A stretch of DNA of 64,000 nt from Endozoicomonas sp. SCSIO W0465 (GCF_023716865.1 NZ_CP092417.1:4876862-4940861); one strand, 5' to 3'. Numbered from the stretch's first letter, positions 15,001 through 21,000 are shown. Program-made: the numbers.

Positions 15001-18000
15001 CATTCTCCTCTTTATTAATGGCCTGACGTAAGGCCGGGTCATTATGGTACAGTCCGAATTTCAGTTTGAAGGTTAACCCTTTCGGCAGAGGCTCCGGTAA
15101 ATACCAGACCATAAAGACATCATGTTCATACTCTGAAACTCTTACCTGTCGCTGCTCACTTGTGGTTACTCTCATGCCGCTACCATAATGGAAAGCATAC
15201 CCTGCGTTCAGGCCCTTGATTCCGAAAGATGAAAAGTCATAAGTGATCCCCGCTTTCATAACTGTTTCACCGTCGTACATCATATCTTCTGCTATACCAT
15301 TGGTGTGGATATTCCAGAAACCATGGGTATTGGCTCCCAGATCGTAATAGTACGAACCCGGCGGGGCATAACCGCTTATACCGTACTTTAAAACAGAAGA
15401 ACGGGCATTATAGTGACTGATGGCAGCGTCAAAAGACCAGCCTGAGGGCATACTCAGACGACCATGTACATTGATCACACTGGCATAATCATCGAACAGA
15501 GGACTGCCTCCCCAGCCGGTCCCCTGCCATAAGTCACCGTCTTTTTCAGTGTGGAAATAACGGACACCGAGGGAAAGATCCCGGCCAGAATCCAAAAATG
15601 TCGTCAGCAGAACATCCAGATTGTGGGCCTGAAGATAGTCTTTGGCAAAGCCATTTCGATATGCCAGAAATAATTCACTGTCTGCCAGCACGGGCATCCG
15701 ATAAAAAACTTCGCCACCGATAATATAATCGATTACCTGATTCTGTTCCGGATTCTGTTCCGGGAAATTGGTCAGCCGGTGAAAACCCGCCTGATTCCGC
15801 AACGACATGCGATTCACCAGAGCGAGCCCAAGCTGCAGATTGCCCGCTGCCATTTTCAGGTTATAGCCCTGCCAGCTACTGGGTACACTTCTTGAACTGG
15901 AGCCGGAAATCAATCCCGTTTTCAAAATTTGCCGGCCAATCGTCAAACTGACAAGGTCCTTGTCACTCTCGGATAAAGGCACCTGCAACCGGACATAAGC
16001 CTGCCCCAGCTTGGCAAAACCTTCATTGGCATCGTTCAGCAACTGGTAAGAGCATCGGCTGGAACAGCCATCTGAATCAGCCAATTCCAACCGGGCAACG
16101 CTAAAAAAACCGGCTCCCAGGACAAGATCGTCAGTTAATGGAGTGATCTGGCCATCGAGCCAAAGCGCTGTCGTCCATGCTCCGGTACGCTTATTAGTCT
16201 CCAGATTGTCCACATTGTAGAAAACCGTTCGCAGCTTTCCGTCAAGCTCCAGTAGCTGCGCATCAGTCGCTGCGGCATCCCCATGGGCAGAAAAATTGAA
16301 CAGGGAGAGGGATAAAAACCAGGCCACAACGCATGGATAGAGTCTCATACAAAGCTACCGACACTGCCAGAAGAATCAGGTTAAAAGTCGTCAGGAGTCG
16401 TGTGGGCAATACACAGATCTGCATGAAAACCCCACTCCCCGATGTCGTTACCTGCCCGTTACCCGGGAAACGGAACCGGCATGTTCATGCAGCCGGCGCG
16501 GGGAGCGGGCAGGGTTTATTGCAGAACAGCGCTGCTCATTCCATATGCTTCTTATCTGTGATTTCCGAAAATCGCCTGCCCAACGACCGGGCAGATGCAA
16601 TCCAGACCGCGAAGAAGCAGAGGACAATCACCGCAACGTAGGGTGCAATGGCAGACAGTGACCCCAACATCACCATCAATACCTGCTGTATCAGTGAGCC
16701 CGTTGATTTCCCGGTGGGATTACCAATAATATCCACGGCAGCCTTACCCTTTACCTTTTGTTCCGGCGTCAGGGGGATATAACTCATCTCCTTGGTGGGA
16801 TCGAACAACGCGTATTTGGTCGATTTACTCAAAATATTTTGTATTGCCCCCAAAATAACTGTCAGCATTAGTGGTGCCACCCCCAGGGTAAGCATCAGGC
16901 TTTCAGGCAACCAGTCCCGGAACAGGACAAAACAGAAAAACAGAGACCCGGTGATCAATAATATTACCGGTGTACACAGTGCCGCGAATGTCCAGCCAAA
17001 ATAGCGGATCACATTGTTTGTAAGAAACAGCATCATCAAGATCGTCACCAACCCGGTGCAGGTTGAAAACAGTCCCATAAACTGATTGTAATTGTTCGGG
17101 TCAGGAAACTGCATGCGGAGCTGATTTTTCCAGGTAACCTCCACCATGTTGATGCACACCCCATAACTGATCACCAGCAGGGCAATGCACAAGAGATATC
17201 TGGAATGAATAATCATTTTGAAGCTGTCACGCAGGGACAGGCTCAGTTTTTCATTGGCTGGCTCATGGCTGCCCAGCTGATGGTATAAGCCGGGGTCACT
17301 CAGGACGTAACGATTCATCCACCAGTAAATCAAAATAATCAAAACCCCACCCAACGTCAGCACACCGGTCATCAGATTAAGGGAATAACCCCAGCAATCC
17401 ACCCCTTCGGGCAGGTTCTCCCTGACTCCGGAGGCCACGTAGACAAAATAGCCTGCGGTGGGAAGCGCCAGATTCCCCATCATGCCAAACAAGGCATAAA
17501 ACCGTTTTGACTCGGCAATGGTGTTGATATGATTGGCAAATCCCCAGAACAGCATGGACAGGCAGACACTGCCCCATAACTCCGACATAACATAAAACAG
17601 GGAGAAGGTCCAGTTACGCATCACCGCAATCAGGCCCTTGAACCCCGGTGGTAAAACACTTTGCAGGTAATCCGATGAGGCATGAAAATGAAGACTATCC
17701 CGGTTGGGGTAGAGCCAGAGGGCAAAAAAAACAAAGAAAAGGATAAATGTGGCTATAACCAGGTAAAAAAGGGTATTCCTCCTGACCAGGTTACTCATTC
17801 GCGAATAAATCAGGGTAAACCCGATGGCAAAAGGAACATTAACCCAGAGTTTCAGAAATGGAATAATTTCGGCACCGGAACCGGCACCGGTGACGACCAG
17901 GGTATCTTTAGTATCCCTGAGAATCGTATAATTAAAAAGAATCAGGTAAAACATCAAAATCATCGGAATAAGCTTTTTCAACTCATGACTGTGAACCGGC

Positions 18001-21000
18001 CAGAACCGCTCCCGCCATTTGCCAAACTCAGGATCAGAACTCATTCAGAAACCTCCAAAACAAATAACGTCTCCCCTTTAACGGTCAAAAAGAGACCGCA
18101 GATAAACAAACCCGGAAGTCCACTATCAATTTGGAAACCTGTTGATGAGCCATGTTCAGCCCATCACCGGAGGAGGTTACCGGAGAAAAACACTCCCTGA
18201 CCCCTCTATTCAACCTTGAAAGAACAGTTAAAATAATGGTTATTCCAATCAATTACCAGCGGCAAAAAAAAAACAAAATAAAAAACTTTATACGCTGTTT
18301 CATTCGGACAAACAAATCATCAAAGCATTAAATTCAGGTAAAAAAACTCCAAATAAATCATCATTCATTTTCATAAGAAAACTAAAAATATAAAGAATAA
18401 ATATTTATCACCAACATGCTCATTACAGCCTACTTTGAATGGTTAGACATTTATCACTCCGGTTTTTATCTCAATGAAAACAAGTTATTGTTGTATTCGT
18501 ATTATTCTGTTTTTATGCATCTCAATTACTGGCTCGCTTCTGTATTCAGTTTCAGGGGTCGCGGCAACAGCCCATCGGGCTGAAGCTGAATGGCCAATGC
18601 AAGCGCAGCCTGATAGAAACGAAGGGATCAGTCGTCTGGTGAACACGCTGAAAACAGCGGTTGCCTGGGGCCTGGTTCCATTAAGTTCGGAAATCGCCCT
18701 GAACATCAGCAAGGATTATTTAAAACGGAATCGTTATGCCTTTCTATTAAGCTTACTCGCCATCCACGGCAGTAATATCCGGCGATCAACCAGCCAGCAT
18801 CTGACCGATAATCTCAGCGCCCGGCTGGAAAGCTTCAGTTACAAAACGCTTTCGGACGAACACCTGAAAAAGCAGACCGATGATCTGCAAACCGACCTTC
18901 TGTTCCGTTCCCTGTTTACTTTTTCCATTCTTAGCATGAATGCCCAGAAAGCGAGAAAAACCTATTTCCGCCTGCAGGACATTCTTGACAATATCGCCTC
19001 CACCGCCAGACTCGCCCTGATTGATGGTGATCATGACCAGGCCAGTGCAATGCTTGCCCTTGCCGCACAGACCATGGTTTACATTCATCCCGAAGCCAGG
19101 GCCAGTGACGGGGCTGACAGTATCAAAACCCACTTCAATTATCGTATTGACTGGTCCGGGATGCCGGAATTTCGAACCGATCTCCAGCGCCATCTGCAAA
19201 GCATGGACCCACTGGTCAGACGTTCAACATTGATTAACCTGCGTTACTGCGATCTCCTGAATCAGTGGCAGATCAGTTATCAGGACTGCAGCCCCTATGA
19301 AAAGGGTGCCATAGCGGAGCTGGAGGGCATGGCCATCATGGCCGAAAAGGAGACAGAACCAGGGATCATCCAGTCCGCCCTCAAAGGTATTCCTGAGCAA
19401 CATATCAGAAATTCCATTTTCATTATGGGGGTTTCGGTCCCGGCAGTAATTCTCTATTTCCTGAACAAAAAGGAGTCGCCGGTTATCTACACGGTAGTTG
19501 ACCATTTTGCCAAGGTAACCGGCATGGCAACCACCAAATCAACCATTGAACGGCTCTCCTCCAATACCCGCCGAAGTCTTGAAAACTGGGGTGCCATTGA
19601 TACCGGCAAAGGGAGTTCATCATCTCCGACCGGGGAATTTGCCAACCATTATTTTAATACCCTGCAAAAAAATGCCACCGCCATTCTCGCCGAACAGCCC
19701 AACTTTGCCCGCTCCAATGCCCAGCGTGCCCTGGAGGCCCTGGTCGTTAATCTGGCAGAAGCCTTCAGCCTGCAGCGGGTCAATGATAATCCGGCCAGCG
19801 CTGATCTTCTGGCCGCAGCGCTGGTGCAGAATTACCGGGAAAACGTTGAAGTCACCCATGATGACAGTCTGATCCGTTCAACCCTGCTGGCCTATCGGCC
19901 ACTGCATAATCAGGAATTGATCCCTGAGGTCATTGAGGCCCTGAAAATTCTCGAACCTGAATACAAAACCAAACAAAAGGTGAGGCAGTGGTATCAGCAA
20001 CAACTGGCAGCCTGGCACAGACTTTCGTCACCGGATAGCCCGGAACAGGATCTGCCTGATTTCCCCGATATACCCTGGATCAGTCAGGTTCCTCTGCTGC
20101 CTCCCGGGAACCAAAACCCGGCCAGCTCTGCCAGCTGGTATCAGAGCTACCTTCCGGACAAGGAAACCATATCCACGATGACCATCCACGGTACTGCCCT
20201 GAGCTATTCAATACTGGTCGCCATCCTTGAACCCCTGACTATCGAGCGGCTAATGGCTGGCCAGCCATCATACTGGCATCTGGCGTCCTACTACCTGTTA
20301 GCCTCCATGTTCGATTTTGGCCTGCGCTCCCTGGGTGAACCGGCAATTGTGCACCTGCAAACGGTGATCAAAAACGGGATTGGCAGCACCACGGGTATTC
20401 TGTCACCAGAGGACAAACAAATTCAGGACGAACTGGCCAATAAAGTCAATGTTCTCAACCGGAAGCTCAGTATTGAAGCCCAGACCAGCCGATCATACCG
20501 TGCGACACTGGAAGCCCTGCTAACCCGCTACTGGAGCCTGTCCAGTCATCTGTTGGCTCACGTTGAACAGTACCCGCAGTCCCAGGCTGCTGCCATGTTG
20601 GCCCTGGCTGCCTACACCCAGCGTTATTTTCACGCCGAATTTACTGAAGACAACCTGGTAATGAAAACCCTGGCAGTGGCAAGACTGAAGTCAGGCTTTG
20701 ACCTACTCAGGGAGCAGGGTGAAATTCAGAACTTCACCCGGCAGGTTTTTGCAGCCCTGAAAGCTCTGGATCCCTCGTTAGCCAAACAGGACATCAGAAA
20801 TATTTACCTGAAAATACTGAAAAGCTGGGGCCTTAACCTTGAAATACAGACGTTGGCCGAATCACAGGACGTACTGGATACCTGGGCCTCCTATGGTGAT
20901 TACCTGCTGGGAGCAGTAGGATTTTCCACCCAGGCCATGGTAAAAGCACTCGTCCATGGCAATGAAGTGATCAGCCGGTCAATGGCCAATTTCTTTGTCA

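Follow-up and report, generated by a model that had tools for sequence, protein, structure and literature searches.

An NTT1-like nucleotide transporter, probably an ATP/ADP exchanger, is conserved across Endozoicomonadaceae

We analysed a 64,000-nucleotide stretch (hereafter, the window; NZ_CP092417.1:4876862-4940861) of the 7,220,701-bp (~7.2 Mb) chromosome of Endozoicomonas sp. SCSIO W0465, a coral strain obtained from Galaxea fascicularis (PMC12465592). Its minus strand carries an ATG-initiated open reading frame (16536..18044) for a single-domain, 502-aa nucleotide exchange transporter of the NTT/TLC family, which matched exactly the RefSeq record WP_252018748.1, “NTP/NDP exchange transporter.” Read directly from the sequence, a Shine-Dalgarno motif, GGAGG (18052..18056, minus strand), precedes the ATG at 18044 by 7 nt; this motif and the conserved block quoted in the sequence-only reading fall in invariant columns of the alignment of the window with seven orthologous loci, the start codon being GTG in the orthologue at locus L008. 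Downstream on the same strand, across a gap of 187 bp (16349..16535), follows an outer-membrane porin of the OprD family (462 aa; 14960..16348), and convergent with the transporter lies a plus-strand gene for a SAMHD1/EF1143-like HD phosphohydrolase (391 aa; 13773..14948). On the other side, a divergent intergenic region of 429 bp (18045..18473) separates the transporter gene from a plus-strand gene (18474..21596) whose putative product is an all-alpha orphan of 1040 aa. This region, presumably the promoter region of both genes, could be aligned with loci L001-L004 and has diverged in L005, L007, and L008, and a consensus scan of it found no sigma-70 consensus site. A terminator-like hairpin at 18096-18069 was dropped, as it is not conserved in L001-L003. 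The normal metabolism that the sequence-only reading had described was borne out by a protein with the domain content of FadH (2,4-dienoyl-CoA reductase; 23443..25461) and a GlpD-type glycerol-3-phosphate dehydrogenase (46019..47617), and genes for FadH, GlpK, GlpD, Mla, and ABC transporters are present within the window alone.

The transporter is a genuine and intact member of the TLC/NTT family (TC 2.A.12), as had been claimed from the conserved block that its reading frame contains (...HELKKLIPMILMFYLILFNYTILRDTKDTLVVTGAGSGAE...). In the Pfam search, PF03219 (TLC) matched residues 3-492 over profile positions 4-491 of 491 with 669.8 bits (E = 3.3e-201; cut-off 21 bits), and in the NCBIfam search, TIGR00769 was covered from 1 to 472 of 472 with 633.8 bits (cut-off 387.2 bits), values that rule out a chance match. 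No other family, MFS included, was matched in Pfam or NCBIfam. Kyte-Doolittle hydropathy resolved 11 clear, non-overlapping hydrophobic helices and a twelfth at 447-465, in agreement with the 12 transmembrane segments proposed earlier. Among proteins of known structure (phmmer against the PDB), the solved carrier 9j3n, “ADP,ATP carrier protein 1,” aligned with only single-residue gaps at 53% identity (584 bits), and the chloroplast NTT1 9j3j at 50% identity (501 bits). K65, E155, E302, and K446 of the transporter are the alignment equivalents of K155, E245, E385, and K527 of AtNTT1, charged transmembrane residues on which transport by AtNTT1 is known to depend (Trentmann et al. 2000, cited in PMC1951785); their numbering proved self-consistent when read in 9j3j, and they serve as a family test in PMC7969357. 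Together, these data show an intact functional core. Because each of the four residues is unchanged in 82-83 of the 83 sequences aligned, and they are thus shared even by a clade of distant paralogues, they do not discriminate between substrates.

Sequence comparison by class places the transporter closest to the ATP/ADP-exchanger (NTT1) type. Its mean identity was 54% to the clade that includes 9j3n and 9j3j, the same value as between these two, and 45% to the distant paralogue clade, in a comparison that left out the characterised non-ATP/ADP paralogues PamNTT2-5, CtNpt2, and RpTlc4/5 and in which the distant clade was set apart by sequence and tree position rather than by known substrate. 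At the 28 class-discriminating columns, the state in Endozoicomonadaceae was NTT1-like in 19, paralogue-like in 2, and specific to their own clade in 7, among the last N442, near K446. The NTT1 clade has 141 columns with a conservation of at least 97%, of which 127 are retained in the window protein and 14 differ. We take ATP/ADP exchange to be its most likely activity. The same carrier might instead import GTP, CTP, UTP, dNTPs, or NAD+, whether in exchange or through proton symport, and serve nucleotide salvage and not energy supply. Such a reading could draw on the generic NCBI name, on family members with other specificities (e.g., the Protochlamydia carriers cited in PMC11521996), on the seven clade-specific columns, on the position of the clade outside the bracket of solved exchangers (see below), and on the phosphohydrolase that neighbours the gene in subclade a, apparently exported and likewise a nucleotide-handling protein. 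We nevertheless consider it unlikely, given the 19-to-2 split in favour of the NTT1 type and given that the identities to the two ATP/ADP exchangers come close to the 54% that these share with each other and exceed the 45% to the distant paralogues. Nucleotide auxotrophs, moreover, typically carry four to five NTT paralogues, whereas most of the genomes studied here hold a single copy, and auxotrophy is in itself unlikely in a 7.2-Mb genome.

Some 20 Endozoicomonadaceae genomes hold an intact orthologue, among them those of E. acroporae, E. atrinae, E. elysicola, Ca. E. cretensis, and Kistimonas. The Endozoicomonas MAG Pac_F2a (locus L006; bioRxiv 10.1101/2022.11.28.517745) carries one that is 88% identical. 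In neighbour-joining (NJ) trees, which included 9j3n and 9j3j as solved exchangers and left out other characterised carriers, these orthologues formed a single clade with bootstrap support of 100/100. Beside it stood an NTT1 group with both solved exchangers, comprising chlamydial NTT1, AtNTT1, Legionella, and alphaproteobacterial sequences, which formed a bipartition of its own in 72/100 bootstraps. The Endozoicomonadaceae clade is thus not among the sequences that the solved exchangers bracket, so that its function does not follow from strict phylogenetic bracketing. The closest sequences outside the family were chlamydial (53-57% identity). Other gammaproteobacterial NTTs (Legionella, Berkiella, Francisellaceae) were 45-47% identical and were placed elsewhere in the tree, which sets the Endozoicomonas NTT apart from any general lineage of Gammaproteobacteria. 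The question raised by the sequence-only reading, i.e., whether the gene clusters with chlamydial and rickettsial carriers through horizontal transfer or with a gammaproteobacterial clade, was thus answered with neither: The clade is specific to Endozoicomonadaceae and is not nested in the sampled chlamydial NTT1s. Among the closest relatives, dN/dS of the transporter was ~0.03-0.07, compared to ~0.17-0.24 in three neighbouring genes at similar dS (0.34-0.64), and its GC3 of 0.60 compares with 0.52-0.57 in the neighbours. The gene has been inherited vertically under strong purifying selection, and this selection together with the native composition indicates that it is old and functional.

The porin was named “OprD family outer membrane porin” in RefSeq and matched PF03573 over profile positions 9-393 of 394 (57.8 bits; cut-off 25); it has a signal peptide and a C-terminal Phe. 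The adjacency and shared strand noted earlier were upheld, and they could suggest that transporter and porin form a dedicated two-membrane operon for nucleotide uptake, in which nucleotides would pass the outer membrane through the porin and the inner one through the NTT. OprD-family channels are substrate-specific, the order of the two genes is the same in L008, L009, L010, and, in fragmentary form, L017, and the 187-bp gap holds no promoter-like or terminator-like consensus site, although a consensus scan cannot establish co-transcription; the RNA fold of the gap was no more stable than that of shuffled sequence (z = -0.55). Conservation, however, spoke against such a link. The porin occupies this site only in the window and those four loci, whereas L001-L005 and L007 cleanly lack the segment 14949-16535 while keeping its flanks; these loci count among the closest relatives, and their transporters are 89-96% identical. 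The porin is also missing from all of subclade b, the second one in Endozoicomonas (L011-L016), where the transporter lies beside a leucine-catabolism operon. Since it is missing at the site in six of the closest relatives, the porin is not an obligate or conserved partner of the transporter but a variable accessory neighbour, and the presence of the transporter in these porin-less loci indicates that it is strongly selected without it, as a gene that stands alone. The OprD match is, in addition, weak, and we know of no nucleotide specificity in this family. Altogether, a dedicated uptake operon seems quite improbable.

More constant in subclade a are the two other neighbours, both of which are conserved in synteny with the transporter. 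The HD phosphohydrolase matched PF01966 with 23.5 bits and had SAMHD1 as its best PDB sequence match; its AlphaFold2 model (pLDDT 90.6) gave EF1143 (4lrl), SAMHD1, and BT4208 as top Foldseek matches (probability 1.0, TM ~0.6). H102, H126, D127, H135, and D200 are invariant, and the hydrophobic, signal-peptide-like character of the N-terminus is conserved; the protein is apparently exported. The 1040-aa orphan yielded no Pfam, NCBIfam, or PDB sequence match and only 29 homologues, all of them from Endozoicomonas where named. Its AlphaFold2 model (pLDDT 65.7) was entirely helical and had no fold match (best E = 0.11).

How such a transporter would be used depends on the life of its host bacterium. 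Coral-tissue aggregates containing Endozoicomonas have been described as membrane-encased and “likely intracellular,” and the genus is generally viewed as beneficial (bioRxiv 10.1101/2022.11.28.517745). With these aggregates and the coral origin of the isolate (PMC12465592), the facultatively host-associated lifestyle suggested previously fits the organism. The accompanying phrase “marker of energy parasitism” went too far: Free-living prokaryotes, too, widely carry NTT genes (PMC5381601), NTT exchange is reversible and follows adenylate gradients, such that rickettsiae can lose ATP through it (PMC1951785), and one symbiont has been proposed to donate ATP to its host (PMC7969357). Whereas a classical energy parasite is obligately intracellular, depends on host ATP, has a reduced genome, and has lost its own energy and biosynthetic metabolism, we found a 7,220,701-bp chromosome, ordinary metabolism genes, and a culturable isolate.

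The reading that we favour, with a probability of roughly 0.6, is an inner-membrane antiporter of the NTT1 type that likely takes up external ATP for internal ADP and would support conditional, facultative energy scavenging in host tissue. In the host-tissue phase, with the bacteria packed in membrane-encased aggregates, nucleotides would enter the periplasm via porins and would then be imported by counter-exchange through the NTT, ATP from outside being swapped for ADP from inside, possibly along with phosphate. The imported ATP would supplement the bacterium's own respiration and not replace a lost pathway. We infer the ATP/ADP substrate pair, net import, and use in the host-associated phase. 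Since the strain presumably makes its own ATP and the exchange is reversible (PMC1951785), the net direction is uncertain.

An ATP/ADP exchanger might thus also run in reverse, with a respiring symbiont passing ATP into the host compartment and receiving ADP for it, as a mutualistic and not a parasitic trait. The full metabolism of Endozoicomonas and its reputation as a beneficial genus would fit such a role. In host cytosol, however, the ratio of ATP to ADP is normally high, a condition that favours import. A precedent for export, beyond the reversible, gradient-driven loss of ATP from rickettsiae (PMC1951785), is “Ca. Azoamicus ciliaticola,” which is proposed to feed ATP to its ciliate host through TlcA (PMC7969357), but none of its extreme specialisation in energy metabolism was seen here, and we regard ATP export as very unlikely. 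We would give a slimmer chance still to a role unrelated to hosts, be it the scavenging of dissolved nucleotides in seawater or biofilm or another function. The free-living NTT homologues (PMC5381601), the large genomes and culturability of this strain and several relatives, and a genomic study describing extracellular nucleotide and DNA use by this clade (PMC12465592) would be consistent with it. Yet the protein falls in with the characterised plastid and parasite carriers of the canonical, single-domain group and does not have the fusion architecture reported in free-living taxa (PMC5381601), every named lineage of the clade is animal-associated, and nucleotide levels in seawater are very low, so that a counter-exchanger would gain nothing there.

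While the NTP/NDP exchange transporter gene is already present in public annotation, its occurrence at the level of the family seems new to discussion: In the searchable literature, we came across seemingly no discussion of an NTT across Endozoicomonadaceae, supposedly beneficial symbionts. Extending facultative scavenging to the whole family, we tentatively propose, as a possibility that we hold to be more doubtful than not, that Endozoicomonadaceae carry an ancient NTT1-like lineage of their own with which they draw on or share host ATP in the aggregates and, in subclade a, a lineage-specific envelope module that harvests host nucleotides. If this were true, Endozoicomonadaceae would scavenge energy facultatively even though their genomes measure 5-7 Mb and they grow in culture, and the module of the subclade would combine a SAMHD1-like (d)NTP hydrolase that is exported, an OprD-like channel that is optional, and the orphan of 1040 aa, which would be secreted. 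Energy scavenging would then be practised by the bacteria that dominate as tissue symbionts in corals and other marine animals and are supposed to be beneficial.

Among known systems, the closest likeness is to the chlamydial NTT1/Npt1-type antiporter (9j3n; PamNTT1 of Protochlamydia amoebophila), likewise a single-domain TLC protein of ~500 aa, which aligns end to end with the window protein and shares its four charged transmembrane residues and 19 of the 28 class-discriminating residues. It differs in that the Endozoicomonadaceae proteins form their own clade (100/100) instead of nesting among chlamydial sequences, in the seven clade-specific residues at discriminating positions, and in that the window's NTT, a predicted exchanger, is carried by a gammaproteobacterium that grows in culture and has a 7.2-Mb genome and not by an obligate intracellular bacterium with a reduced one. 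The plastid NTT1 (AtNTT1, 9j3j) is 50% identical over the whole carrier domain and keeps K155, E245, E385, and K527, but it is a eukaryotic organellar protein with a PDB chain ~100 residues longer that supplies ATP to the organelle, and the chlamydial carrier, at 54%, is at least as close to it as the window protein. The NTTs of Legionella shakespearei, Ca. Berkiella, and Francisellaceae MAGs and the tandem paralogues of Parachlamydiaceae share Pfam family and length with the window protein, to which they are only 44-47% identical; in the NJ tree, the copies of Berkiella, the Francisellaceae MAG, and the tandem Parachlamydiaceae fell into the distant paralogue clade (support 100/100), while that of Legionella shakespearei was placed near plastid NTT1, in a group with two MAGs of Alphaproteobacteria. 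TlcA of “Ca. Azoamicus ciliaticola” (PMC7969357), finally, resembles the present case as an NTT in a respiring gammaproteobacterial symbiont, judged by the AtNTT1 residues; it differs in clustering with alphaproteobacterial (Holosporales/Caedibacter-like) sequences, in the strong reduction of its genome, and in the ATP export to the host that has been proposed for it (PMC7969357).

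The reading frame at 16536..18044 (-) was found as the sequence-only reading had described it, with an ATG start and 502 codons, and the N-terminal block that it had reported, …LKKLIPMILMFYLILFNYTILRDTKDTLVV…, is present in the protein. Its assignment to the TLC family held as well: PF03219 was matched over the whole profile (E = 3.3e-201, 669.8 bits) as the sole family match, with no assignment to MFS or another family, and the NCBIfam model TIGR00769 ('NTP/NDP exchange transporter') scored 633.8 bits against a cut-off of 387.2. The hydropathy profile displayed 11 clear helices and a twelfth at residues 447-465, and a GGAGG ribosome-binding site (18056..18052) lies 7 nt 5' of the start; in an alignment of the window with seven orthologous loci, the GGAGG and start codon columns were invariant, the start in L008 (a locus of MAGCC1) being GTG. 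An exact-sequence look-up returned, from Endozoicomonas sp. SCSIO W0465, USE34761.1 for the transporter, USE34760.1 for the adjoining porin, and USE34759.1 for a nearby HD-domain protein. A tblastn search of the window found no second TLC copy. The identification itself is not new, since the TLC/NTT family is textbook knowledge and RefSeq already labels the gene 'NTP/NDP exchange transporter'.

Four charged transmembrane residues of the plastid carrier AtNTT1, K155, E245, E385, and K527, are important according to the mutagenesis of Trentmann et al. 2000 as cited in PMC1951785, and the same residues serve as a family test in PMC7969357. We observed that K65, E155, E302, and K446 of the window protein align with them, respectively, and that these four positions are invariant in nearly all of 83 aligned sequences, a near-invariance that confirms an intact core without indicating the substrate. 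Upstream of the gene, a terminator-like hairpin just 5' of the start on the transporter strand (18096-18069) was evaluated as a leader or attenuator and dismissed as a chance structure, because its 5' arm is not conserved in the orthologous loci L001-L003 and Rfam gave no match. In Endozoicomonas sp. ONNA2 (L004, 4925-5515), about 150 bp of extra sequence relative to the window and L001-L003 lies in two blocks in the intergenic region 5' of the NTT gene, where a small mobile element may have inserted into the promoter region.

The gene is under notably tighter constraint than its surroundings. For the transporter, dN/dS was 0.03-0.07; for the HD gene, the 1040-aa gene on its other side, and an aldose epimerase, it was 0.17-0.24 in pairs with the four closest relatives, for which dS was unsaturated. 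The transporter was 93-96% identical where its neighbours were 79-86%. These values show strong purifying selection on a working protein. As to its class, the transporter is 53% identical to 9j3n ('ADP,ATP carrier protein 1', Chlamydia pneumoniae Npt1) and 50% to AtNTT1 (9j3j), two solved ATP/ADP exchangers that share 54% with each other. In a class comparison in which these two exchangers were the characterised carriers included, 28 columns split the NTT1-type carriers from a distant paralogue clade, and the Endozoicomonadaceae proteins were NTT1-like at 19 of these, paralogue-like at 2, and unique at 7; the window protein kept 127 of the 141 columns whose conservation within the NTT1 clade is 97% or higher. 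Judged from this affinity, the protein would most probably carry out ATP/ADP counter-exchange, with a likelihood of about two thirds, although its clade falls outside the group that the characterised exchangers bracket. Salvage with another range of substrates is a somewhat unlikely alternative, to be set beside the 7 unique columns as well as the 19 NTT1-like ones.

Searching 5.8 billion proteins, we found the closest matches in Endozoicomonas and Kistimonas (62-93% identity), with the next step down at 54-58% and, where named, in Chlamydiota. A scan of one genome per species yielded intact orthologues in about 20 Endozoicomonadaceae genomes, among them Kistimonas, E. acroporae, E. atrinae, E. 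elysicola, Ca. E. cretensis, several coral single-cell genomes and MAGs, and three uncultured gammaproteobacterial bins; E. montiporae, E. numazuensis, and E. marisrubri did not appear in its matches. Chlamydial MAGs followed at 44-57% identity, and other Gammaproteobacteria (Legionella shakespearei, Berkiella, and Francisellaceae) reached 45-47% only. In a neighbour-joining tree of 83 sequences with 100 bootstrap replicates, the Endozoicomonadaceae NTTs formed one clade (100/100), as did the distant paralogues (tandem Parachlamydiaceae copies, Berkiella, and Francisellaceae; 100/100), while a separate bipartition (72/100) united chlamydial NTT1-type carriers including 9j3n, the plastid 9j3j, Legionella, and two alphaproteobacterial MAGs. 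The tree thus shows neither of the outcomes between which we had been asked to choose by the sequence-only reading, horizontal transfer from Rickettsiales or Chlamydiae versus a gammaproteobacterial clade: its placement of the family indicates an Endozoicomonadaceae-specific lineage that is not generally gammaproteobacterial and not nested in the sampled chlamydial diversity.

Recent horizontal transfer was considered and rejected, given that GC3 is native-like (0.60 versus 0.52-0.57 in the neighbours), dS to the closest relatives matches that of neighbouring genes (0.35-0.49 versus 0.34-0.64), and the gene is not bracketed by the nearby IS elements (one at 11974-13026, and others), so that any transfer would be ancient. 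Composition and dS together point to long vertical inheritance within the family. An ancient transfer involving Chlamydiota, in either direction, is plausible. Some genomes hold two NTT genes; in MAGCC1 (L008 and L016), there is one from each of the two subclades, a and b, of the family clade, and the window protein belongs to subclade a. Endozoicomonas sp. GU-1 (P0123) has two GenBank accessions for one protein sequence. Records named 'Salinisphaera sp. G21_0' and 'Thalassotalea sp. G20_0' (L001, NZ_JAGHQW010000049.1; P0128) carry an NTT in the 90% cluster of the window protein; the L001 protein is 96% identical to it and sits in full Endozoicomonas synteny (1040-aa gene, HD gene, and epimerase), and these assemblies are probably mislabelled or contaminated.

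A co-oriented OprD-like porin had been claimed to adjoin the transporter, and we indeed found one at 14960..16348 (-), on the same strand and 187 bp downstream (PF03573, 57.8 bits). This arrangement could be read as a dedicated porin-carrier operon. Within the gap (16349-16535), we found no consensus promoter or terminator, and the predicted fold (z = -0.55) was no stabler than that of shuffled sequence. Among relatives, a 1.6-kb segment comprising the porin gene and its upstream spacer (14949-16535) is cleanly missing between conserved flanks in L001-L005 and L007, where the transporter stop falls within about 30-60 bp of the HD gene stop. Besides the window, L008, L009, and L010 have the porin, and L017 has it in fragments. 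These comparative sequence data argue against an obligate partnership, and we regard a dedicated operon as unlikely. In the transporter tree, the window is nested among porin-less lineages, which implies repeated porin loss or re-acquisition by recombination.

Throughout subclade a, the transporter is transcribed divergently from the 1040-aa orphan gene; it also converges on the HD gene in all loci but L019 and L020. Its neighbours in subclade b (E. elysicola, E. atrinae, Ca. E. cretensis, and SESOKO1) are a MerR regulator and an operon for the catabolism of leucine/isovalerate. Given such differing surroundings, the transporter behaves as a stand-alone gene. The idea that the transporter is functionally tied to the HD hydrolase or the porin across the whole family was rejected, because in subclade b (E. 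elysicola, L015) the transporter adjoins this liu-type operon.

The HD protein (13773..14948 (+)) adopts a predicted EF1143/SAMHD1 dNTP triphosphohydrolase fold (AlphaFold2 pLDDT 90.6; Foldseek probability 1.0, TM about 0.6), and its metal-binding H…HD…D residues are invariant. The N-termini of its orthologues (listed from L001-L005, L007, L009, L010, and L017) are all hydrophobic and signal-peptide-like, conserved in character and not in sequence, which points to a protein that would be exported or membrane-anchored, unusual for enzymes of this type. Members of this protein family occur almost exclusively in Endozoicomonas. At residues about 25-43 (13845-13900 (+)), after the signal-like segment and before the HD domain, lies a short peptide repeat whose copy number differs by strain: it reads 'ESAIESAIES' in the window, whereas relatives (L001, L002, and L003) have 'IESHIESHIESH' or 'IENHLESHIES'. 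A second HD protein 24 kb away (37511-38980 (+); HD and HD_assoc, dGTPase-like) had no signal-like N-terminus noted, and its presence suggests that the predicted-exported enzyme beside the NTT is not the cell's ordinary dNTP triphosphohydrolase. The 1040-aa protein (18474-21596 (+)) is all-helical, has a signal-peptide-like N-terminus, and occurs in Endozoicomonas only (29 homologues); searches of Pfam, NCBIfam, and PDB sequences gave no match, the AlphaFold2 model reached pLDDT 65.7, and the best Foldseek hit against the PDB had E = 0.11. RefSeq starts this gene 41 codons downstream (999 aa), thereby losing the hydrophobic N-terminus conserved in the orthologues' longer frames. Taken together, a predicted-exported nucleotide hydrolase, an optional outer-membrane channel, and the carrier are suggestive of a nucleotide-harvesting module. 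Because this grouping is confined to one subclade and its genes lie on different strands, we keep it outside the proposed mechanism and regard it only as a lead.

The FadH and G3P dehydrogenase context of the earlier description was correct, with a FadH-type reductase and GlpD in the window, alongside Mla and ABC transporter genes, GlpK, RecD2, a topoisomerase, a group II intron, and at least five transposases; this fits an IS-rich Endozoicomonas chromosome (7,220,701 bp) with ordinary metabolism. Three insertions break up an ABC amino-acid transporter operon (5772-13502) that consists of an ATPase (5772-6482), a binding protein (10222-10998), and two permeases (11037-11720 and 13032-13502): the group II intron (RNA domains 6615-7007, RT/maturase 7353-8363), a DUF4277/DDE transposase (8424-10007), and another DDE transposase (11974-13026), which has left the second permease truncated. 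At 27010-28050 (+) and 34533-35573 (+), two transposase ORFs of the IS1595 family, identical in length and Pfam score, lie in direct orientation and bracket a topoisomerase (29339-31294), a gene with an SPFH domain (31380-32621), and a third transposase (33053-34297); one possibility for this segment is a composite transposon, another a substrate for recombination. A 562-aa ORF (49352-51040 (-)), whose sole match is a weak RING finger (zf-C3HC4_2, 20.2 bits, under the cut-off of 27), possibly encodes an E3-ligase effector of the eukaryote-like kind reported in host-associated bacteria. Two convergent ORFs (55503-58937 (+) and 59506-62943 (-); 1144 and 1145 aa) lie partly in a stretch of low GC (0.40-0.44 at 55-57 kb and 58-60 kb, but 0.53 at 60-62 kb); in Pfam, one had no match and the other only matches in which no single stretch passed alone, and they may be large effectors or mutual paralogues.

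In the full-text-searchable literature, outside of which lie most subscription journals and supplementary tables, no paper turned up that assigns an NTT to Endozoicomonas, and a conserved NTT lineage of the Endozoicomonadaceae's own, distinct within a known family, appears unreported there. The related Ca. Endonucleobacter is stated to lack TLC carriers (PMC11521996). A study of P. acuta aggregates (bioRxiv 10.1101/2022.11.28.517745) reports ATP/ADP translocases for the co-resident Simkania alone, although the Endozoicomonas MAG of that study, Pac_F2a, holds an intact orthologue 88% identical to the window protein. A 2025 clade-level genomic study (PMC12465592) treats porins, periplasmic nucleotidases, nucleoside uptake, and extracellular nucleotide use, with the carrier unmentioned. 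The gene thus seems to have been overlooked in Endozoicomonas.

In host tissue, Endozoicomonas forms dense, membrane-encased, 'likely intracellular' aggregates (bioRxiv 10.1101/2022.11.28.517745). The best-supported reading is a conditional energy-scavenging carrier: within aggregates, nucleotides reaching the periplasm would be swapped by the transporter for internal ADP. The data show its family, intactness, selection, class affinity, and distribution, and from these we infer its substrate, direction, and timing of use. The observation made by the sequence-only reading stands, while its interpretation as energy parasitism is supported in part only. Because the exchange is reversible (PMC1951785), the carrier might also give the host a net supply of ATP, a role put forward for Ca. 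Azoamicus (PMC7969357) that we consider improbable here, and a host-independent role, for which the occurrence of NTTs in free-living bacteria (PMC5381601) speaks, is very unlikely. Symbionts of this family are under consideration as coral probiotics (bioRxiv 10.1101/2022.11.28.517745), and should the carrier import host ATP, the balance of costs and benefits in the Endozoicomonas-coral association would look different. The genus would then also offer a tractable, culturable model for an early, facultative stage of energy parasitism. Usually, an NTT carrier is taken to signal an obligate intracellular bacterium whose genome is reduced; in this case, a family of culturable, large-genome animal symbionts has conserved a canonical single-domain NTT under strong purifying selection.
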